Shown here: in pieces, positions 1 through 10,235 of the stretch
Position numbering within the stretch: the stretch's first letter is position 1
Layout of the letters: each line of letters begins with the position of its first letter
Assembly: GCA_965222075.1 (NCBI GenBank)
Contig: OZ244937.1
Span: forward strand, 3,392,001-3,456,000
Length of the DNA stretch: 64,000 nucleotides
Direction: 5' to 3'
From: Candidatus Latescibacterota bacterium
Lineage (GTDB): Bacteria > Latescibacterota > UBA2968 > GCA-2709665
Translations under genes and position numbers: made by a program
The notes under the pieces: model-generated
What the model saw: the letters and a program-made list of their open reading frames with translations, nothing else
Database searches by the model: none
Told to the model about the DNA's origin: nothing

Positions 1-139
1 TCTATGAGGCCAAACTCCGGGGCGCCATTGTGGACAAAGCGCAGTTCGAAGGCGCCATCACCATGGCAGAATCTTATTAATTGCGGATTGCGGAATAAAG
101 GCTTTTCAATCCCAAATCCGCAACCCGAAATTGCTCGAT

Positions 140-1162
140 ATGTCCTACACACTGACAGACACCCTCCACAGGCCTCTCAAAGACCTGAGGATCTCCGTCA
201 CCGACAGGTGCAACTTTCGGTGCCCCTACTGCATGCCTGCTGAAATCTTCGGGGAGAAGTACGAATTCCTCCCCAAAACGGAGATCCTGACCTTCGAGGA
301 AATCGTCCGGCTGGCGCGTCTCTTTGTCCAGCTCGGAGCCGAAAAAATCAGGGTCACAGGCGGAGAACCCCTCCTGCGTCGGGAGCTTGAAACCCTGATT
401 GCTCGGCTCGCAGGCATAAAGGGAGTGAAGGACCTCACCCTCACCACCAACGGCTACCTCCTGCCCCAGAATGCCCGCGCCCTCAAAGAGGCCGGCCTGC
501 ACCGGATCACGGTGAGCGTAGACACCCTGGACGAGGAGACCTTCAAACAGATGAACGGCCGGGGCTACAGCGTGGGCCGGGTGCTCGAGGGCATCCGTAA
601 AGCGGAGGAAGTTGGCTTTCACCCCATCAAAATCAACGCCGTAGTGCAAAAAGGCACCAACGACCACACCCTCGTCGACCTGGCCGGGTATTTCCACGGC
701 ACGGGGCACATCCTCCGCTTCATCGAATACATGGACGTGGGCACCCGGAACGCGTGGGAACTGGGCCATGTCGTCCCTGCCGCCGAAATCGTCCAGCGCA
801 TCCATGCGGTCCTGCCTCTTGAGCCCGTCGAGCCCAATTACATCGGAGAAGTCGCCAGGCGCTACCGCTACTTAGACGGCGGCGGAGAGATCGGAATCAT
901 CGCCTCGGTCACCCGGCCCTTTTGTGGGGACTGCACCCGGGCCCGGCTCTCTACCGACGGAAAGCTCTACACCTGCCTCTTTGCAGGCCAGGGCACCAGC
1001 CTCAGAGACGCCATGCGGGCCGGGGCGGACGACGGGGAACTCCTGGATCTCATCCAGTCCGTCTGGACGCGCAGGGAGGACCGGTATTCCGAACTTAGAA
1101 CCGCCCAGACGGAAAGGGCCGGCCGGCTCCCCAAAATCGAAATGTACCAGATCGGAGGGTAA
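140..1162 (+). CDS. moaA: GTP 3',8-cyclase MoaA (radical SAM, molybdenum cofactor synthesis)
   Basis: LRISVTDRCNFRCPYCM radical SAM motif, FCGDCTRARL C-terminal cluster, terminal IGG. Confidence 0.97.
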   Translation: MSYTLTDTLHRPLKDLRISVTDRCNFRCPYCMPAEIFGEKYEFLPKTEILTFEEIVRLARLFVQLGAEKIRVTGGEPLLRRELETLIARLAGIKGVKDLTLTTNGYLLPQNARALKEAGLHRITVSVDTLDEETFKQMNGRGYSVGRVLEGIRKAEEVGFHPIKINAVVQKGTNDHTLVDLAGYFHGTGHILRFIEYMDVGTRNAWELGHVVPAAEIVQRIHAVLPLEPVEPNYIGEVARRYRYLDGGGEIGIIASVTRPFCGDCTRARLSTDGKLYTCLFAGQGTSLRDAMRAGADDGELLDLIQSVWTRREDRYSELRTAQTERAGRLPKIEMYQIGG

Positions 1163-1210
1163 AGACAGGGGAATAGGGGGTAGAACCTGGAATCTTCTTC
1201 AGAAAATAGC

Positions 1211-1238
1211 TTGACAGACGTCATTTTTCTTTTATTAT
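1211..1238 (+). promoter_or_regulatory. sigma70-type promoter upstream of the nitrite/sulfite reductase
   Basis: TTGACA 1211-1216, 16 bp spacer, TATTAT 1233-1238 in an AT-rich gap. Confidence 0.6.
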
Positions 1239-1310
1239 TAAAAACATATTATTCTTGATCAAGTTACTTAAGAATACACCTCTTCTATCAACCCTCACAG
1301 GGGGTGTCTT

Positions 1311-3569
1311 GTGGGCGAGCCGACGACATGGAAAGAGAAACTGGCCGATCGTATCCCCGACGACCTCGGTCGGGAAGTCGATATTTTCAAGACCCAGATC
1401 GAGCTGAGAAGGCAGGGCAAGCTCGACGAGGTGGTCTTCATGGAAACCCGCCTGCGGCGGGGCATCTACGGGCAGCGTTACGACAACGGGCAGCGTTTTG
1501 ACGGCACGCAGACCCAGACGCTGAACTACCCCTCCGGGGACCTGATCAAAGGTCCGAACACCGTCTGGGACGCCCCGGGGATGCAGCGCATCAAGATCCC
1601 CTTTGGCGGCCTGACCGCAGAACAGATGGACGTCCTGGCCGACCTCTCAGAAGAGTACTCCGACGACATCGCTCACATCACCACCCGCCAGGACATCCAG
1701 CTCCACTACGTCCACATCGACGATACCATCGACCTGATGCGCCGGCTGGCCACAGTTGGCATCACCACTCGCGAGGCCTGCGGAAACTCAGTCCGCAACG
1801 TCACCGCCTGCCCCCTGTCGGGCGTCTGCCAAACCGAGACCTTCGATGTAACGCCCTACGCCAGAGCCTGCGCCGGATTCCTCCTGGGCCATCCGGATGT
1901 CCAGGACTTCGGCCGCAAATTCAAGATCGCCTTCTCCGGCTGCAAGCACGAGGCCTGCGGACTAACCACCATGCACGACATGGGCGCCATTGCCGTCAAA
2001 AAGACCGTCGACGGTAGGGAGGTCCGCGGCTTCGAACTCTACGTGGGCGGGGGACTGGGGGCGGTGCCGCACCAGGCCAAGCGCTTCGACGAATTCCTGC
2101 CCGAAGAGGAACTCCTGCCCACCGCGCAGGCCATAGGTCGGGTATTCGCCCGGCTGGGCGAGAAGAAAAACCGCAACCGCGCCCGGATCAAGTTCCTGGT
2201 GGCCAAACTCGGCATTGAGGAATTTAAACGACTCGTCCTGGAGGAGCGGGAAACGATGCCGGAGGACCCCCGGTGGGTCGCCTTCCTCTCCGACCTGCAC
2301 GCCCACGACGAGGAGCCTCTCAGGATCGCTCAGCCGCTGGACGGCGTCGTCAGGCCCGAAGGATTTGATGAATGGTACCGGACCAATGTCTACCCCCAGC
2401 GCCAGGACGGATACGCAGTCGCCACGGTCACCCTCCCCTTAGGCGACATCACGGCCAATCAGTTTCGCGCCCTGGCCGACATCGCCCGCCGCTTTGTCAA
2501 AGACACCGTTCGCACCACCGTAGAGCAGAACATCCTGCTGCGCTGGGTCAGCGAGGCCGACCTGCCCGAACTCTATGCCGCCCTCAAAGCAATCGGCCTG
2601 CACGAACCGGGCGCGGGCACGATCGTAGACGTCACCGCCTGCCCGGGCACGGACACCTGCAAGCTTGGCATCGCCTCCTCTCGAGGGCTTGCGGGCGAAC
2701 TCCGCACGCGTCTGGCGGAAAAGAGCCTCCAACTTGATCAGGCCGTTGAGAACTTGCGCATCAAAATCAGCGGCTGCTTCAACGCCTGCGGCCAGCACCA
2801 CGCCGCCGACCTCGGTTTCTACGGCATCAGCCGAAAATTCAACGGCTACACCGTCCCCCACTTCCAGGTCGTCTTAGGCGGGCAGTGGACTGAAAATGCC
2901 TCCTCCTACGGGCTGCCCATGGGTGCGATTCCCTCCAAGCGAATCCCGGACGCGGTGGCCCGCATCACCGAAAACTACATCCAGGGCCGGAACAGGGAAG
3001 AGAGCTTCCAGGACTACGTCAAACGCGTCGGCAAAGTGCGGGTTAAAGAACTCTTGAACGACCTCACCGAGGTCCCCGTCTACGACCTCGATTCCTCCTT
3101 CTACAGCGACTGGGGCGATACCCGGGTGTTCACCACCGGAGACATGGGCAAAGGCGAGTGCGCCGGCGAAATCGTCCCGCTGGTCCAGTTTGAACTCACC
3201 GCCTGCGAGCGGGAGGCCTTTGAGGCCCTGGTCCACTTAGACGATGGCAACTACGAAAATGCGGCCAGGACCGCCTGCACCGCCATGCTCCACGCGGCCA
3301 GGGCCCTGATCAAAACCCAGTTTCTGGACATCCCGGAGGAGCCGGACAGGATCATCGAGGAATTCCGCAGGCGTTTCTTAGACACCGAACTCTTCTTCGA
3401 CCCTTTCGCCAAGGACAAGTTTGCCAGATATCTGTTTAAAGCGCACGAGGAAGAGCAGAATGGGGTAGACTACACCCCGGACCTGGCCCACCAGCGGATC
3501 GAGGAGGCCCAGCTCTTCATCGAAGCCACCCACAGCTGCTACGGCCGGATGAACGTAGTCACCGCCTGA
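1311..3569 (+). CDS. Siroheme nitrite/sulfite reductase (NirA/Sir family) with C-terminal HEPN-like extension
   Basis: HITTRQDIQLH, ACGNSVRNVTACP, RKFKIAFSGC, ACPGTDTCKLG and ISGCFNACGQH motifs. Confidence 0.93.
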   Translation: MGEPTTWKEKLADRIPDDLGREVDIFKTQIELRRQGKLDEVVFMETRLRRGIYGQRYDNGQRFDGTQTQTLNYPSGDLIKGPNTVWDAPGMQRIKIPFGGLTAEQMDVLADLSEEYSDDIAHITTRQDIQLHYVHIDDTIDLMRRLATVGITTREACGNSVRNVTACPLSGVCQTETFDVTPYARACAGFLLGHPDVQDFGRKFKIAFSGCKHEACGLTTMHDMGAIAVKKTVDGREVRGFELYVGGGLGAVPHQAKRFDEFLPEEELLPTAQAIGRVFARLGEKKNRNRARIKFLVAKLGIEEFKRLVLEERETMPEDPRWVAFLSDLHAHDEEPLRIAQPLDGVVRPEGFDEWYRTNVYPQRQDGYAVATVTLPLGDITANQFRALADIARRFVKDTVRTTVEQNILLRWVSEADLPELYAALKAIGLHEPGAGTIVDVTACPGTDTCKLGIASSRGLAGELRTRLAEKSLQLDQAVENLRIKISGCFNACGQHHAADLGFYGISRKFNGYTVPHFQVVLGGQWTENASSYGLPMGAIPSKRIPDAVARITENYIQGRNREESFQDYVKRVGKVRVKELLNDLTEVPVYDLDSSFYSDWGDTRVFTTGDMGKGECAGEIVPLVQFELTACEREAFEALVHLDDGNYENAARTACTAMLHAARALIKTQFLDIPEEPDRIIEEFRRRFLDTELFFDPFAKDKFARYLFKAHEEEQNGVDYTPDLAHQRIEEAQLFIEATHSCYGRMNVVTA

Positions 3570-3731
3570 AACGCCGGGCACCGCCCTCCTACGAGGCCAC
3601 TGCACGACGGTCGACCCCAATCGTAATCTCAGGGGCAGCAGGCGTTGGGGGCCTGCACCGCAGGCACCCGGAGCACAGGGCCAGGGCTTGCCACAGGGCC
3701 AAATTTTAAATTTTGAAAATCCATACGCCAC

Positions 3732-4307
3732 ATGGACCTGCACAAAATCAACGTCAAATTCTACCTGCAAGACGGTCAGGACATCGAACCGGAGGCCTGG
3801 TTTCGGACCTTCAGCACCTGGATCCCGGACACCCCGGATGAAGTCCTGGTCGACGTTGCCGATTACAGCCATGTCCACCAGGGCCCCGTCACCCTCCTGG
3901 TGGGGCACGAGGCGAACTACAGCATCGACAATACGGACGGGGAACTCGGCCTGCTCTACAACCGCAAGCAGCCCTTAGATGGCGACCTGTCTGAGCGGCT
4001 CCACACGGTCTTCCGCAACGCCCTGAAGGCCTGCCGCCGCCTCGAAGCCGACCCCACCATCGGCGACAAGCTGAGGTTTCGGGGGAATGCGGCCCTGCTT
4101 GTGCTGAACGACCGACTGCCCAATACAGAAGAGATCCTCACGGCCCTCAGACCCGGCCTGGAAGGCCTTCTGGTGGCCCTCTACGCCGGGGCCAACGTCA
4201 GTTCCCGGCGCAATCCGGACCCAAAACGGCGATTTACCCTGAATATCCAGGCAGAAGGAGACTGGGATACCGCCACCCTCCTGAAAAACCTCGAAGGCCA
4301 TTTTTAG
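3732..4307 (+). CDS. hypothetical protein following the sulfite reductase
   Basis: 191-aa ORF with host-like codon usage and ATG start. Confidence 0.8.
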   Translation: MDLHKINVKFYLQDGQDIEPEAWFRTFSTWIPDTPDEVLVDVADYSHVHQGPVTLLVGHEANYSIDNTDGELGLLYNRKQPLDGDLSERLHTVFRNALKACRRLEADPTIGDKLRFRGNAALLVLNDRLPNTEEILTALRPGLEGLLVALYAGANVSSRRNPDPKRRFTLNIQAEGDWDTATLLKNLEGHF

Positions 4308-4318
4308 CATTTTGAACC

Positions 4319-4346
4319 TTGACAAACCACAAGAAAGTACTATATT
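4319..4346 (+). promoter_or_regulatory. sigma70-type promoter of the ferredoxin gene
   Basis: TTGACA 4319-4324 and TATATT 4341-4346. Confidence 0.5.
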
Positions 4347-4431
4347 TCGATAGGGATCACATTTTGATGTACCAATCGAAAAAAACTGAGCAAGGACTGA
4401 AAAGCATACCTCAAGGAAAGGGGTGAAAAGA

Positions 4432-4701
4432 ATGACCTACATCATCGCCGAACCGTGCATTGATGTCCTGGATAGGGCCTGTGTGGAGGTCTGCCCGGTA
4501 GACTGCATCTACGAGCCGGACGCGGCAGAAATTACCTTGCCTTCGGAAGAACGCTTGAACATGCTCTACATCCATCCGGAGGAGTGCATCGACTGTGGTG
4601 CTTGCGAGCCCGAATGCCCGGTAGAGGCGATCTTCGTGGATGAAGATACGCCCGAAGAATGGAATGAATATATCGAAATCAACGCAAAAGCTTTCGAATA
4701 A
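4432..4701 (+). CDS. dicluster (7Fe/8Fe) ferredoxin
   Basis: [27 protein letters not shown] and [12 protein letters not shown]; alternative GTG start at 4423. Confidence 0.95.
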
Positions 4702-4720
4702 GCGCCCTGTCGGGCCGAGT

Positions 4721-4770
4721 TGAAAAGGAAAATGCCAGAGTCAGGTTCTCGGCCCTGGCATTTTTCATTT
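4721..4770. terminator. probable bidirectional intrinsic terminator between ferredoxin and senB
   Basis: AAAATGCCAG...CTGGCATTTT inverted repeat with A/T tracts between convergent genes. Confidence 0.7.
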
Positions 4771-4824
4771 GAAAAACAGGGCCAATGGTTCGCTCAGCAT
4801 CAGGCAACCAACCGCAGGTAAAAC

Positions 4825-5784
4825 TCAGAATTCACCCTGCAGCTCCTTCAGCAGCCCCTCCCATGCCCCTCGCTCGCGGACAGGGTCAACCAGAGGCTTC
4901 AACCCCTTGCACCACGCCTTCAGCCTCGCATAAAAAGCCAAATCCCGCTCCGCCCGCCCCATCAGCTTCGCCAGCGCCTCTGTATCCCACACCGGGAAGT
5001 ACCCCGGATAGTCTTCGCCCAAAAGCCCGATTGACCCGGAAATCCGCGACGAAAGCACCGGCACCGAACAGGCCAGCGCCTCACACACCGCGTTTGCGCC
5101 CCCCTCCATCACCGACGTCAGCACCAGCAGCCGGCTGCGGGCTAAGATGCGGACCGCCTGCCAACGGGGGTGCTCCCCCACCCAGCGGTAGCGCGGGTTG
5201 GACGCCGCCTCCGCCCGGGCTTGGTCCGCCATCTCCTCGCTGAGCGCCCCGCCCACCTGCACCACTTCAACCCGCGACCCCGGAGGCAGCAGCCGGGCAG
5301 CAGCAGCGGCCCGAAACGGATCCTTCACCTCCCGCAGGTGCCCCAGCACACAAACTTCAAACGCCCCCACCCTGGGGGCAAAACGTCCCGGCGGTCACGT
5401 AAAAGATTGCGTGATCACCCGCGCTTTGGGACGCAAACGCTCCGGCAGCTCGGCGATGCCAGCAGGCTGCAGCAGCACAAATCGAGACGCCATCTCCAGG
5501 GACTCCTGCGCCTGAGGGTCGGTATGGATGTCCCCGTACAGGTCCGTCCCCGTCAATGCCAGGACCAGCGGCAGATCCGGGTGCACGCGGTGAAACCGGT
5601 CGATTGAGGCGTGGCTCCGCCGGGCGTGTAATGCCACCATCATATCGCACCGCTGCCCGCCGTATTCCTCCTCAACGGCAACACGGTGCCCCAGGTCCCG
5701 CAGCATCCTCGTCCAGCGCAGCGCCGTCACCCGGTTGCCTTTCCGGGAGCGGGCCGGCGCCGGTGTAACCAGACAGATTTTCAT
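4825..5784 (-). CDS. senB: Selenosugar synthase SenB (GT-B glycosyltransferase) with one in-frame TGA at 5395-5397 (Sec/readthrough or nonsense mutation)
   Basis: ORFs 5395-5784 and 4825-5370 are in the same frame; GNRVTALRW, ALHARRS, LTGTDLY, GHLREVKDP, EGGANAVCEA motifs; directly downstream of senA. Confidence 0.88.
5359..5397 (-). promoter_or_regulatory. candidate bacterial SECIS hairpin after the in-frame UGA of senB
   Basis: UGA CCGCCGGGACGUUUU GCCCCC AGGGU GGGGGC GUUU: GC stem with loop G about 23 nt after UGA. Confidence 0.4.
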
Positions 5785-5787
5785 GGC

Positions 5788-7122
5788 TCAACCCCCGGTG
5801 CCTGCCAGTGCGCATGTCCTGAACCCCGCCCACACATCCCGGCGATCGGGCGTTTGAAAATTGCGGTAGCCGGTGCGAATCAGCCGGGAACGGGTCACCC
5901 AGCAACCGCCCCGGTAGACCTTGCGCGTGCCGAACCAGGGCTCGGAATACTCCACATACGGATCTGTCTCAAATCCCGGAAAAGGCAGAAAGTCGCTGCT
6001 GGTCCACTCCCACACATTGCCGACCATCTGCCGGCAGCCGAAGGGGCTGTCCCCTTCCGGGAACGCCCCCACATCCACACAGCCCATCCCCCGCCAGTCT
6101 AAGTTGGTCCGCTCCGGCGTGGGCGGCGCATCCCCCCACGGAAAGCGCCGCTTCCCCTGGGCAAGCCCCCTGCCGTCCGCTGCGGGCTCTGCCGCCGCTG
6201 CCGCCTCCCACTCCGCCTCCGTCGGCAGCCGGCGGTCGGCCCAGCGGCAGTACGCCTCCGCCTCGTACCAGTTCACGTGGATCACGGGAAGGTGTGGTTC
6301 CAGCGGCCCCCACCGGTCAAAATGCCGCCGCAGCCAGCCCCCGTTCCCATCCCGCTGCCAGTACACCGGGTGTTCCGCACCGTCGGACTCCCGCCACACC
6401 CACCCTGCCTCGCTCCAGAATTCCCGCGTTCTGTATCCCCCATCTTCTGTAAACGCCGCAAACTCGGCCTGGGTCACCGGCGCCCGCGCAATCGAAAACG
6501 GGGCCACCCCCACCACATGGCCCCACTTCTCGTTGTCAAACACAAACGGCTCCTCCCGGGGCGCGCCCAGCACAAACGCGCCCCCTGCAACCTCCACATC
6601 GCCGGGCAGGGGTCCCCCGCCGGCGTCCGCCTGCCCGGGTTCGGCAACCATCGAAAGGCTCGGAGCGGGATACCCTAAGGTCTGCCGGGCGTAGGTCAGG
6701 GCCTCGGTGTGCATGTCCTCGTGCAGGGTCGTGTAAATAATATGATAGACCTCCGCTTCGGAAAGTCCGCCCTGCTCGATCCGTTCCAGCACCCGGTCCC
6801 GCACCTCGCGCATGTAGGCCAGAGTCTCACCTCGGGAGGGAAGCGGCAGGTCCCACCGCGTATCGTGGGCAACAGCGATCGAATCGTAGAGCGCGTCCTC
6901 GTCACCGCGCACCGGTTCCTGCCCACCCGCATGCCGCAGCGCCCACCTGGACTGGAACCACGCGTGGTGCCCCATCTCCCACAGCAGGGGATTGGTAATA
7001 GGGAGCTGTGGCCCCATCAACTGCTCGTCCGTCAGATCGGCAACCAGTTCAAAAGTCCGCTCGCGGGCATCGCGCACCCACCCGGCAAGTTCGGCAGTTG
7101 TAAAATAACTGGAAAGAGCCAT
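5788..7122 (-). CDS. senA: Selenoneine synthase SenA (EgtB-like: DinB + FGE-sulfatase domains)
   Basis: NPLLWEMGH, HEDMHTEA metal motif, FVFDNEKW, RLPTEAEWE, GNVWEWT, FAG-like WAGFRTC end; adjacent to senB; AGAGGAG RBS. Confidence 0.9.
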   Translation of the reverse strand: MALSSYFTTAELAGWVRDARERTFELVADLTDEQLMGPQLPITNPLLWEMGHHAWFQSRWALRHAGGQEPVRGDEDALYDSIAVAHDTRWDLPLPSRGETLAYMREVRDRVLERIEQGGLSEAEVYHIIYTTLHEDMHTEALTYARQTLGYPAPSLSMVAEPGQADAGGGPLPGDVEVAGGAFVLGAPREEPFVFDNEKWGHVVGVAPFSIARAPVTQAEFAAFTEDGGYRTREFWSEAGWVWRESDGAEHPVYWQRDGNGGWLRRHFDRWGPLEPHLPVIHVNWYEAEAYCRWADRRLPTEAEWEAAAAAEPAADGRGLAQGKRRFPWGDAPPTPERTNLDWRGMGCVDVGAFPEGDSPFGCRQMVGNVWEWTSSDFLPFPGFETDPYVEYSEPWFGTRKVYRGGCWVTRSRLIRTGYRNFQTPDRRDVWAGFRTCALAGTGG

Positions 7123-7230
7123 TGAAAAAAAATCTCCTCTTTAGGGTTGCGCCTGATGTGAATTATCTGTAACTTGGCAGGTTCTGATGCTACATCTGCC
7201 TCACTCTTCAAACATCGAAGAGGTATACCC

Positions 7231-8088
7231 ATGAAAATAATCCTTTTGTCCTGTCTCTTAGTCCTGTCTTCACTGGTGCCTGCGCTCTCCCAGCCCTTTC
7301 GGTTTACGGCGATTCCAGACGAAAACACAGCGCGTCTGAAGGAACGCTTTGACAAAGTTGCGTCCTACCTGTCCGGTAAACTGGGTGTCCAAGTCGAGTA
7401 CGTACCGGTAAAATCCTACAGCGCTTCGGTCGCCGCGTTCAAGAACAACCAGGTGCAGCTGGCCTGGTTTGGCGGCCTCTCCGGGGTCCAGGCCCGCCGC
7501 GTCGTACCCGGCGCCGTGGCCATCGCCCAGGGCGAAGAAGACCTGTTGTTTGTATCCTACTTCATCGCAAATACAAGAACCGGACTGCAGCCTGCAGAAG
7601 GTTTTCCCGAAGGCATCAGGGGACTGACATTCACCTTTGGGTCAAAAGGATCGACTTCGGGTCGGCTTATGCCGGAGTTCTTTATTCGGAAACATTTTAA
7701 TGCTGCCCCAAAAGAGGTCTTCCGGCGCGTGGGGTTCAGCGGCGACCACTCCAAAACCCTTGCCCTGGTACAATCGGGCAGTTATGAAGCGGGGGTTCTC
7801 AACTACAAGGTCTGGGAAAACGAAACCACAGCGGGCAATGTCGACACCAGCAAAGTCCGCATCATCTGGAAAACGCCCCCCTACCCGGACTACAACTGGA
7901 CAATTCGCGGTGATGTGCAGAAGAAATACGGCAAAGGCTTCATACAGAAAGTCCGGAATGCCTTTCTCGGCATGACGGATAGAGACCTGCTCAACGCCTT
8001 CCCGCGCACCCGTTTCATCCCCGCCGACAACGCGACCTACGGGCCAATACTGGAAACCGCAATCGCCGTGGGCATTATCGAAAAATAG
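7231..8088 (+). CDS. putative selenate ABC transporter substrate-binding protein (PhnD-like)
   Basis: signal peptide; FTAIPDE, AWFGGLSGVQAR, FTFGSKGSTSGRLMP, GFSGDHSKT; divergent from senA. Confidence 0.88.
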   Translation: MKIILLSCLLVLSSLVPALSQPFRFTAIPDENTARLKERFDKVASYLSGKLGVQVEYVPVKSYSASVAAFKNNQVQLAWFGGLSGVQARRVVPGAVAIAQGEEDLLFVSYFIANTRTGLQPAEGFPEGIRGLTFTFGSKGSTSGRLMPEFFIRKHFNAAPKEVFRRVGFSGDHSKTLALVQSGSYEAGVLNYKVWENETTAGNVDTSKVRIIWKTPPYPDYNWTIRGDVQKKYGKGFIQKVRNAFLGMTDRDLLNAFPRTRFIPADNATYGPILETAIAVGIIEK

Positions 8089-8091
8089 CCT

Positions 8092-8745
8092 ATGTTCGAT
8101 CTGGACAACATCAGTGTCGCCTACAGTGACACGCCGGTGCTGGTGGACATCTCTCTCAACATTCGGGAAGGAGAGAAAATCGTCATCATCGGCGCCAGCG
8201 GGGCCGGCAAATCGACATTGCTCAGGAAGCTTTACGAGATGCAGAAGGAACGGGCGGCGTTCATCCATCAGGATTATGCGCTCGTACCGCAGCTTTCTGC
8301 CTTTCACAATGTGTGCATCGGCCGCCTCGACCGACACAGCACCGCTTACAACCTGTTCAACCTGATCAAACCTCGAAAAGTGGAACTGGCCAGCGTCACG
8401 CCCATACTTGAGTCGCTGGGCATGCCGGAGAAAACCTTCGAACGCGTCAGCAGCCTGTCGGGCGGCCAGCAACAACGGGTCGCCGTCGCACGCGCGGTTT
8501 ACAGGGAAGCCGACGCCCTGATCGGCGATGAGCCTGTGTCTTCCATCGATCCGCACCAGGCAGGTGCGGTACTGAACCTCCTTAAACAGCGGTCAAAAAC
8601 CCTCATCCTGGCGATGCACGACGTACAGCTCGCGCTCGAGCATTTTGACCGCATCGTCGGGCTGCGCCTCGGTCGAATCGTCTTTGACCTGCCAGGTGTA
8701 GAGGTCAACGACAAAATCCTAACCGATCTGTACCGACCTTGCTGA
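8092..8745 (+). CDS. ABC transporter ATP-binding protein (PhnC-like)
   Basis: Walker A GASGAGKST, LSGGQQQRVAVAR, DEP. Confidence 0.93.
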   Translation: MFDLDNISVAYSDTPVLVDISLNIREGEKIVIIGASGAGKSTLLRKLYEMQKERAAFIHQDYALVPQLSAFHNVCIGRLDRHSTAYNLFNLIKPRKVELASVTPILESLGMPEKTFERVSSLSGGQQQRVAVARAVYREADALIGDEPVSSIDPHQAGAVLNLLKQRSKTLILAMHDVQLALEHFDRIVGLRLGRIVFDLPGVEVNDKILTDLYRPC

Positions 8746-10235
8746 GAGTCAGCCTTTACTTCCTTGTCGTTGCATCCGTCTGTCTCTTATTCGCAGATAT
8801 CGAGATCACGACGCTCGATCCCTGGCAGGAGATCCACCGGGTTGTCCTGGGCTGGGTCACGCCGGACCTGCTCGTACTCTACACCCTCAAAGACGCCCTG
8901 CTCAACACCCTCACCTTTGCGTTTTGCGGCATCACCCTCGGGATCCTGTTCGGCGCCTGTTTCGCCTTCCTTTTTCACATCAACCTCGTCAGACTCTTCT
9001 GCGCTTTCATCAGGGCCATCCACGAAATCCTCTGGGCCTTTATCTTCCTGCCCATCGTTGGATTAAACCCGATCTGCGGCGTCCTGGCCATCGGCGTCCC
9101 CTATGCCGGCGTCTTTGCAAAGGTGTATGCGGAGATCCTGCAGGAAGCCGACCAGAATCCCCTGAAAGGCTTACCGCCCGGTACCCGTTCCATCTCCAGG
9201 TTCATCTATGGAATCTTGCCGGTCACTTACACTGATCTCAAAAACTACACCGCCTACCGGTTCGAATGCGCCCTGCGTTCCAGCGCCATACTGGGCTTCA
9301 TTGGACTGCTCACCCTCGGATTTCACCTGGAAACCGCCTTTCGGGAAGGGCTCTATTCAGAAGCGGCCGCCCTGCTTTACATCTTCTACCTGCTCATTGC
9401 CTCCCTCAAATACTGGCTCAGGCCCAGACTCGTCCCCATATACGTCGGACTCTCCTTCGCCCTCATCTCCAAAGAGACATCCCTGTCGTGGGAGAACATC
9501 ACCCGCTTTCTCACCTACGAAATCCTCCCCTGGCCGATGCGGCGGGAGGGCTTTCTGTCCGGCACCTACGAAATCGCGTTTCCAGCCGGACAGGTCTGGG
9601 AATGGGCGGTCGATATATTCACAAGCGAGGGGCTTGTGGGCGTGTGGAATACGGTCATCCTGACCCAGATTGTTCTGGCGGGCACCGGACTGTTTACGCT
9701 CGTGGGCTTCGCGGCCGTCTGCCGGCACTTCTCGCCTCTCGCCTTTGCCAGGATCTCACACTTCCTCCTCATTATCCTGCGCACCACACCCGAATACATC
9801 CTGGCCTATGCCTTTATCCAGCTCTGGGGACCGTCCATGCTCCCCGCGATCGCCGCCATCGTCCTGCACAACGGCGCAATCCTGTCCTACCTGACCGGCC
9901 AGAACGCCGACCTGGTCAACCTCAGGATAGACGCGTCTGAGAAAAAAACCAATCGCTACTTTTTTGAAGTCCTCCCCCGCATCTACGGACAGTTCCTGGC
10001 CTTTCTGTTCTATCGCTGGGAGGTCATGATGCGAGAATCGGCCATTCTGGGAATTCTGGGCATCTACACGCTGGGATTCTTCATCGACAGCGCCATAGCG
10101 GACGACAAGCTGGACAAGGCCATCTTTCTGATCCTCTTCACCGCGCTGATGACCATGGTCATCGACACCATCTCCCAGAAGATACGCAAAAGGCTGCGGA
10201 TCTCTCCGGGTGCGGTCTTAACCATAAGAGAGTGA
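8739..10235 (+). CDS. ABC transporter permease with duplicated PhnE-like domains
   Basis: multiple TM helices; YRFECALRSSAILG and YRWEVMMRESAILG repeats. Confidence 0.92.
   Translation: MLRVSLYFLVVASVCLLFADIEITTLDPWQEIHRVVLGWVTPDLLVLYTLKDALLNTLTFAFCGITLGILFGACFAFLFHINLVRLFCAFIRAIHEILWAFIFLPIVGLNPICGVLAIGVPYAGVFAKVYAEILQEADQNPLKGLPPGTRSISRFIYGILPVTYTDLKNYTAYRFECALRSSAILGFIGLLTLGFHLETAFREGLYSEAAALLYIFYLLIASLKYWLRPRLVPIYVGLSFALISKETSLSWENITRFLTYEILPWPMRREGFLSGTYEIAFPAGQVWEWAVDIFTSEGLVGVWNTVILTQIVLAGTGLFTLVGFAAVCRHFSPLAFARISHFLLIILRTTPEYILAYAFIQLWGPSMLPAIAAIVLHNGAILSYLTGQNADLVNLRIDASEKKTNRYFFEVLPRIYGQFLAFLFYRWEVMMRESAILGILGIYTLGFFIDSAIADDKLDKAIFLILFTALMTMVIDTISQKIRKRLRISPGAVLTIRE

Follow-up and report, generated by a model that had tools for sequence, protein, structure and literature searches.

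Can a senB gene that is interrupted by an in-frame stop codon still give rise to a complete enzyme? This question is raised by a stretch of 64,000 nucleotides from a Candidatus Latescibacterota bacterium (assembly GCA_965222075.1, contig OZ244937.1, positions 3,392,001 to 3,456,000), hereafter called the window, in which the gene for the selenosugar synthase SenB contains a single internal TGA. Our comparative analysis leads us to propose that senB is very probably an intact selenoprotein gene, in which the UGA of codon 130 would be decoded as selenocysteine (Sec). The original prediction made on this DNA had read the codon as a possible Sec UGA followed by a hairpin like a selenocysteine insertion sequence (SECIS), and this reading is strongly supported by the conservation of the codon, by the existence of Cys homologues, by the covariation of the hairpin and by the Sec machinery of the genome. 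The elements concerned are the following.

4825..5784, minus strand: senB, which encodes the selenosugar synthase in 319 codons, one of them an internal TGA, ahead of its terminal TGA (4827..4825); assigned by TIGR04348, PDB and AlphaFold matches
5395..5397, minus strand: in-frame UGA at codon 130, predicted to be read as selenocysteine; the column is shared by 10 distinct senB genes
5380..5394, minus strand: spacer of 15 nt between UGA and hairpin, codons 131-135, which appears to be translated according to its codon-position differences
5363..5379, minus strand: candidate bacterial SECIS, in which a 6-bp stem (GCCCCC/GGGGGC) carries the apical loop AGGGU (5373..5369), based on bacterial SECIS constraints and covariation

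The senB gene and its read-through product

Translation of 5784..4825 on the minus strand yields 319 residues with a single internal stop, ...RVITQSFT-stop-PPGRFAPRVGAFEV... (also written as ...RVITQSFT-stop-PPGRFAPRVGAFEVCVLGH...). This agrees with the original prediction, which had described, without stating the strand, two senB open reading frames (ORFs) lying in one frame and separated only by the TGA at 5395-5397. Both halves had been considered intact, and their scores bear this out. Indeed, the read-through product reaches 398 bits with the NCBIfam model TIGR04348 (cut-off 300) over model positions 1-309 of 310, and the N-terminal and C-terminal halves scored alone still give 167.9 and 222 bits, respectively.

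The read-through product was then compared with SenB from V. paradoxus. It aligns end to end with the SenB chains available in the PDB (E 2.6e-57, 38-39% identity). Its AlphaFold model has a predicted local distance difference test score (pLDDT) of 92.9, and the top Foldseek matches of this model are SenB chains, with a template modelling (TM) score of 0.90 and an r.m.s.d. of 2.2-2.5 A over about 320 columns that comprise both GT-B domains. All binding and catalytic residues are kept in the alignment to 8jjq, namely N17, T20, H53, R56, T78, T80, Q126, R151, K154 and E227, which are equivalent to N20, T23, H58, R61, T83, T85, Q131, R155, K158 and E231 in V. paradoxus. They have been attributed to the selenophosphate pocket, to sugar binding and to Se-P cleavage (PMC10891094, PMC11237966), and most of the substrate-binding and catalytic residues are invariant across the SenB alignment. 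By sequence and predicted structure, the read-through product is a complete SenB, for which a selenosugar synthase activity is predicted.

Where does the TGA fall in this enzyme? In V. paradoxus SenB, the interdomain loop consists of residues 131-145 (PMC10891094). Column 130 aligns with Ala135 within this loop, which extends from 124 to 141 in the model of the window enzyme. Since column 130 comes only four residues past Q126, the Gln in charge of sugar binding (Q131 in V. paradoxus), the codon is predicted to lie beside the active-site cleft and not in a remote spacer. Its assignment to an interdomain linker in the original prediction can thus be kept. Besides, this SenB clade has conserved Cys at three columns, 46, 145 and 292 (138, 142 and 146 of 165 sequences); those of columns 46 and 145, at least, are missing from the V. 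paradoxus enzyme.

The TGA itself is found in independent data. Contigs of the runs X2, X3 and X8, which come from three different studies (depths 60.1, 24.3 and 7.96), span positions 4700-5900 and show differences only at 4810, 5461, 5709 and 5779; all three carry the same TGA at 5395-5397. To place this codon among homologues, we brought together the loci found in a scan of 168 Latescibacterota genomes, 80 of 430 loci of metagenome origin and 80 of 460 confirmed senB loci on contigs that represent one genome per species. Duplicates were taken out, as were seven rows that were disrupted or truncated, which left 165 unique SenB sequences. The rows dropped were L119 and L129 (frameshifted or disrupted, L119 having a TAG past the end of homology), L065 (truncated where its contig ends), L201, L204 and L218 (in which the TGA, at codon 5, probably precedes the real start) and L162 (devoid of 32 N-terminal codons).

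Within the phylum, 31 SenB matches were obtained at E <= 1e-60, nine of which contain one TGA. This TGA is at column 130 in eight of the 30 genes above the family cut-off and at column 165 in the ninth TGA-bearing gene (L063). The eight genomes with TGA at column 130 belong to six genera and three families, and the seven genes other than that of the window are 59-93% identical to it at the protein level, with neither a second stop nor a frameshift. The same TGA occurs in two of the 80 metagenome loci, which brings the number of distinct sequences to 10. Moreover, when the best 120 short proteins related to the N-terminal half were taken from the protein collection, 17 of them stopped exactly at column 129. 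A Cys is present at column 130 in three of the 165 unique homologues (L021, L148 and L122). In a FastTree tree, for which only local supports are available, nine of the 10 genes fall in one clade with a support of 98, and L021 and L148, both with the motif QSFT-C-PPG, nest inside this clade.

A candidate SECIS and the selenocysteine machinery

The TGA (5397..5395) is followed by the spacer (5394..5380), by GCCCCC (5379..5374), by AGGGT (5373..5369) and by GGGGGC (5368..5363), the first G of the loop being base 23 counted after the A of the TGA. The hairpin GCCCCC-AGGGU-GGGGGC that had been noticed 3' of the UGA, with its loop G about 23 nt on, is therefore confirmed from the sequence. We compared it with the bacterial SECIS (bSECIS) model, for which a loop of 3-9 nt, a stem of 4-16 bp, a G within the first two positions of the loop, a distance of 16-37 nt from UGA to loop and a minimum free energy of at most -7.5 kcal/mol have been published, most loops being of the N1-G[G|U]-N-N2 type (PMC13188914). 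The window hairpin agrees with all these constraints, with a stem of 6-8 bp, a loop A-GG-G-U, a spacing of 21-22 nt and about -13.7 kcal/mol. When an ungapped version of the constraints quoted in that review (PMC13188914) was applied to the whole set, eight of the 10 genes with TGA at column 130 passed, versus 10 of the 155 homologues without TGA at this column.

A hairpin of this kind, taken alone, is no more than what chance would provide in such a gene; its significance comes from the comparison of genes, that is from its constant column and register, its compensatory changes and its specificity for TGA genes. In the register of the window stem, the eight genomic TGA genes form 6, 6, 5, 6, 6, 6, 5 and 5 of the six pairs. 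None of 89 other homologues forms six pairs and three form five, one of which is L021, a Cys form. As for the GG of the loop, 8/8 genomic TGA genes have it, versus 13/89 others. Homologues that share the P-R-x-G residues reach only three to four stem pairs, which argues that the stem is not a by-product of the protein sequence. In the alignment of the 10 sequences, 95% of the stem cells are paired, versus 50-68% with slid partners. Three of the six stem pairs display compensatory changes (G-C to A-U once, C-G to U-A twice), and the covariation score of 0.344, to be compared with a mean of 0.210 after shuffling, is matched by none of 500 shuffles, though the kinship of the sequences inflates their apparent independence.

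The genome also possesses the machinery that Sec insertion would require, since selA (566.7 bits), selB (368.6 bits), selD and a tRNA-SeC(tca) are all present. The gene selD carries an in-frame TGA of its own (SCGG-U-ASK) and adjoins, together with selB, the tRNA-SeC(tca) gene. In this genome (G000:C1:3959745-3962940 and C1:4481682-4483049), selB, the Sec-type selD and tRNA-SeC are grouped together, and selA is located elsewhere. As for the other genomes, selA was found in all 13 TGA-senB genomes tested, eight with TGA at column 130 and 5/5 of the other types. Another in-frame TGA of the window's own genome belongs to an fdhA-like gene near G000:C1:1196506-1197228 (L226), in the context NCSRA-U-HAP. 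Its SECIS resembles that of E. coli, with an 11-nt spacer, a 7-bp stem and the sequence GGUUGCC-GGUCU-GGCAGCC. This loop begins 18 nt after the UGA; the apical loop of senB is 3 nt farther from its own.

With respect to known elements of the bSECIS or E. coli fdhF type, the senB hairpin is likewise situated in the coding region directly after the UGA, its upper stem being of 6 bp and its loop, A-GG-G-U, of 5 nt, with 21 nt from UGA to loop. It differs from the E. coli element by a loop that keeps GG and not GU, and by having no match in Rfam.

Alternative explanations

Several observations weigh against a Sec codon in senB. Column 130 is mostly occupied by Ala or Pro and rarely by Cys (A 54, P 46, K 15, R 12, U 10 and C 3 in the 165 sequences, where U is Sec), which is atypical of a catalytic Sec. 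The sequences are related, nine of 10 belonging to one clade, so that the counts given above are not independent. In L027 and L028, the SECIS constraints are satisfied only through a bulged stem. Folding of the single 48-nt stretch gives -15.7 kcal/mol with z = 0.16, 108 of 200 shuffles being as stable, and Rfam searched at a permissive threshold returned matches at chance level and no SECIS family. Similarly, the generic strength of hairpins after codon 130 fails to separate TGA genes from other homologues in this G+C-rich family, in which hairpins of similar length are common. The presence of selA is uninformative as a discriminator, given that 131 of the 168 phylum genomes have it. Finally, the sole contig from an RNA library, a metatranscriptomic one labelled sponge metagenome, spans 5518-5840 and stops short of the UGA. 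We also observed that this contig extends over the junction of senA and senB, that it shows a single difference (5709), and that it may result from DNA carry-over.

Could the TGA then be a true stop, with senB split into two genes? The two Rossmann domains would be made separately and associate, the C-terminal domain starting for instance at the GTG of codon 139 (5370). This scenario, which we consider improbable, draws on the position of the stop exactly in the interdomain loop, on the 181-residue ORF that begins at GTG 5370 and on an AGGAGG ahead of a GTG at codon 141 in L018. It fits poorly with the other TGA genes, since L029 has no in-frame ATG, GTG or TTG through codon 154 and since the first start in L024 and L019 is codon 153, inside the catalytic GHLRxVK motif. 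In addition, pairwise comparison of the eight ungapped TGA genes shows 14, 34 and 76 differences at the first, second and third positions of codons 131-135, with no start codon ahead of them. Such a third-position bias suggests that translation runs through these codons in the upstream frame, and hence that the UGA is decoded. A compensated, in-register hairpin that is specific to TGA genes and a Cys at the same column in close relatives are also hard to reconcile with a split gene. The UGA might, on the other hand, be decoded by a near-cognate tRNA as Trp, Cys or Arg with the aid of the hairpin, which would produce a full-length SenB free of selenium. We hold this to be very improbable. Sec is a predicted residue at this codon and the hairpin could be a generic stimulator of read-through, but the latter conforms to N1-G[G|U]-N-N2 and stands at the canonical distance, none of the 13 TGA-senB genomes tested lacks selA, and a Sec/Cys pair at one column is the usual signature of selenoproteins.

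A loss of function is even less probable. A nonsense mutation, for example CGA to TGA, would account for a single internal stop and for the public gene calls in which close relatives are 129-residue fragments. However, the TGA is kept in 10 sequences, with identities down to 59% among the genome loci, both halves are constrained in the absence of any frameshift or second stop, and the C-terminal half by itself scores 222 bits. The divergence also excludes that the 10 sequences are copies of one recent mobile fragment. As to a sequencing or assembly error at 5395-5397, nothing beyond its prior possibility speaks for it; the contigs of X2, X3 and X8 agree at these positions and the same codon is present in independent assemblies of other species, which leaves it a negligible probability. 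The original prediction had presented a nonsense mutation or a sequencing error as equally possible; this does not hold in view of the 10 genes that keep the TGA and of the agreement of the contigs from three studies. We thus retain Sec insertion at codon 130 as the explanation that is very probably correct.

Selenium and the significance of the codon

The codon at column 130 is not the only one of its kind. Among the 165 SenB sequences, 30 have exactly one internal stop, and this stop is TGA every time.

Column 130: 10 sequences, Latescibacterota
Column 145: 12 sequences, mostly Poribacteria
Column 171: 4 sequences, Acidobacteriota
Column 220: 3 sequences, Blastocatellia
Column 165: 1 sequence, Latescibacterota

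In the Poribacteria-type genes (L070, L072, L075, L083, L088, L090, L120, L126, L135, L160, L161 and L173), TGA replaces the conserved Cys of FEV-C-VLGH at column 145 (C 142, U 12). All 12 share the downstream sequence CGTCCCGTGAAGGA(C/T)CC, which is the same in sister genes that have TGC (L103) or TCA for Ser (L096) at this codon. In Acidobacteriota, TGA at codon 171 (L108, L121, L123, L150/L151, L167 and L185) is found at a column where Arg prevails (R 127, K 15, C 4, U 4). The TGA of column 220 (L136, L142 and L214) takes the place of a conserved Leu in Blastocatellia (L 138, U 3, no Cys); after it come CCCGCC-UGGAA-GGCGGG in L136 and L214, and a shorter imperfect stem in L142. At columns 130, 165, 171 and 220, most homologues have a residue other than Cys (Ala/Pro, Leu, Arg and Leu, respectively). 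Truncated proteins are again found in databases, 28 of 120 short proteins stopping at column 144 and 30 at column 170. The ungapped bSECIS test was passed by 0/12 genes with TGA at column 145, 0/4 at column 171, 0/1 at column 165 and 2/3 at column 220. RNAalifold detected only an invariant weak 4-bp hairpin for column 145 and a 6-bp triloop hairpin for column 171, with no informative covariation. The assignment of these other sites would thus rest on the conservation of their columns and not on a SECIS, and their support is weaker than that of column 130. Because the columns differ, UGA appears to have been gained separately at least five times in SenB, whatever the tree. The adjacency of a senC/selD paralogue showed no clean pattern with respect to the type of TGA, being observed in 0/8 genome loci with TGA at column 130 (1.5-kb flanks), and in 4/9 with TGA at column 145; most of the loci without TGA have none either.

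The genes that surround senB in the window are listed below.

5788..7122, minus strand: senA, selenoneine synthase, ending 3 nt ahead of the senB start codon (502.9 bits with the model NF041186 SenA, cut-off 420)
7174..10235, plus strand, divergent: putative selenate ABC transporter, with binding protein (7174-8088), ATPase (8092-8745) and permease (8739-10235)
131-1162: moaA, on the other side of senB from senA
1311-3569: nitrite/sulfite-reductase-like gene, beside senB
3732-4307: ORF without family match, beside senB
4423-4701: ferredoxin, beside senB

The binding protein of the transporter matches TIGR04553 with 368.7 bits (cut-off 250), and its ATPase and permease are PhnC- and PhnE-like. 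The genes at 131-4701, together with the selenate-type transporter beyond senA, resemble a neighbourhood for selenium uptake and reduction. No senC is present within the window, where senA lies directly upstream of senB, and the genome holds one SelD above the family cut-off, 0.5 Mb away. The organism thus appears to have senA and senB and no dedicated senC.

What would the consequences of Sec insertion be for this pathway? SelB and Sec-tRNA(Sec) would act on the hairpin 5379..5363 to insert Sec at codon 130, and the product would be a full-length SenB of 319 residues with Sec in the loop that joins the two Rossmann domains. When charged tRNA-Sec is lacking, the ribosome would halt at the UGA and release a 129-residue N-domain fragment that is presumably inactive. 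SenB consumes the same selenophosphate that SelA needs for tRNA-Sec, and this selenophosphate would be supplied by a single SelD, itself a selenoprotein. Active SenB would thus be made only when tRNA-Sec is charged, so that selenoneine would be synthesized only once selenophosphate suffices for this charging. If Sec is inserted, such a dependence of SenB synthesis on selenium follows mechanically. It is common to any selenoprotein, the peculiarity of SenB being that it uses up the very selenophosphate on which the charging of tRNA-Sec depends.

A distinct question is why the codon has been kept. Both the insertion of Sec and the reason for its conservation are what we infer from sequence comparison. 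Provided that the UGA is recoded, it could possibly serve as a selenium checkpoint. A chemical role of the selenol, in the handling of the selenol product, of selenium or of redox, seems to us a slightly less probable proposal, and a Sec that is tolerated as near-neutral a less probable one again. We would only tentatively go as far as to suggest that the UGA is kept as a translational checkpoint and not for its chemistry, in which case selection would bear on having a Sec codon anywhere in the gene. With the same reserve, such a checkpoint would give the synthesis of selenoproteins priority over a small-molecule pathway fed by the same selenophosphate. That UGA recurs at five columns, most of them non-Cys, fits selection for a checkpoint without proving it. 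The conserved Cys at column 145 and the sporadic Cys at columns 130 and 171 in unrelated lineages point in the opposite direction, to a chemical role of a selenol or thiol in this clade. The selenium gate proposed as a purpose in the original prediction is consistent with these data, and we consider it possible.

Comparison with known systems may help to place these ideas. The SenB of Variovorax paradoxus (PDB 8JJN, 8JJQ, 8JJT, 8FBX and 8RZ3), which has been characterised as the Se-glycosyltransferase that acts in selenoneine biosynthesis, has the same family, GT-B fold, residues and adjacency to senA, with the difference that the UGA of the window corresponds to Ala135, and the conserved Cys145 of this clade to Val149. 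A parallel can be drawn with the Sec-containing SelD (TIGR00476, UxxK), which is likewise an enzyme of selenium metabolism made as a selenoprotein, with an in-frame TGA in the same genome; the synthesis of SelD should therefore depend on selenium too. The Sec of SelD is the catalytic residue of its N-terminal loop, and Cys is its counterpart throughout the family (PMC13188914). Unlike in SelD, the Sec column of senB is mostly Ala or Pro and belongs to an interdomain loop.

Regulation by Sec decoding has precedents. A SECIS-like element regulates selAB in E. coli, and the synthesis of eukaryotic selenoproteins obeys a selenium-dependent hierarchy. As in these cases, the Sec-decoding apparatus would act in senB as a sensor of selenium supply that sets expression. 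The precedents concern the Sec machinery or selenoproteins, whereas a gate on senB would act on a small-molecule pathway that competes for selenophosphate. A May 2026 review of the prokaryotic selenoproteome alludes only to the control of selB (PMC13188914).

To what extent is this new? SenB had been presented in the original prediction as not known to be described as a selenoprotein, and our search of the literature, which covered titles, the first part of abstracts and matching passages, among them those of the papers on the discovery and structure of SenB and of a 2015 paper on comparative genomics, returned no such description. The above-mentioned review counts "more than 110" families (PMC13188914), and the terms SenB, TIGR04348, glycosyl and selenosugar are absent from its main text. 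In a collection of 5.8 billion proteins, the best full-length relative of the window SenB is 74% identical to it; relatives at 95%, 86% and 83% identity occur only as 129-residue fragments, and no close relative is present at full length. It is very likely, as far as sequence comparison can tell, that senB adds a new family to the bacterial selenoproteins.

SenB consumes selenophosphate in the committed step of a pathway that is the only well-characterised one to place selenium in a small molecule. If our interpretation is true for Latescibacterota, and apparently for Poribacteria and Acidobacteriota at other positions, one family would be added to the more than 110 families of prokaryotic selenoproteins. 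Current gene calls would also split or truncate senB, so that counts of selenoneine producers among uncultured phyla, some of them labelled sponge metagenome, would be too low. It has long been discussed that Sec codons could sense the supply of selenium and set priorities among the pathways that use it. The case of senB would be of special interest in this respect, both by the role of the enzyme itself and by a codon that apparently arose several times at different positions. Such repeated gains, mostly at non-Cys columns, would make the idea of a Sec codon acting as a selenium sensor directly testable.

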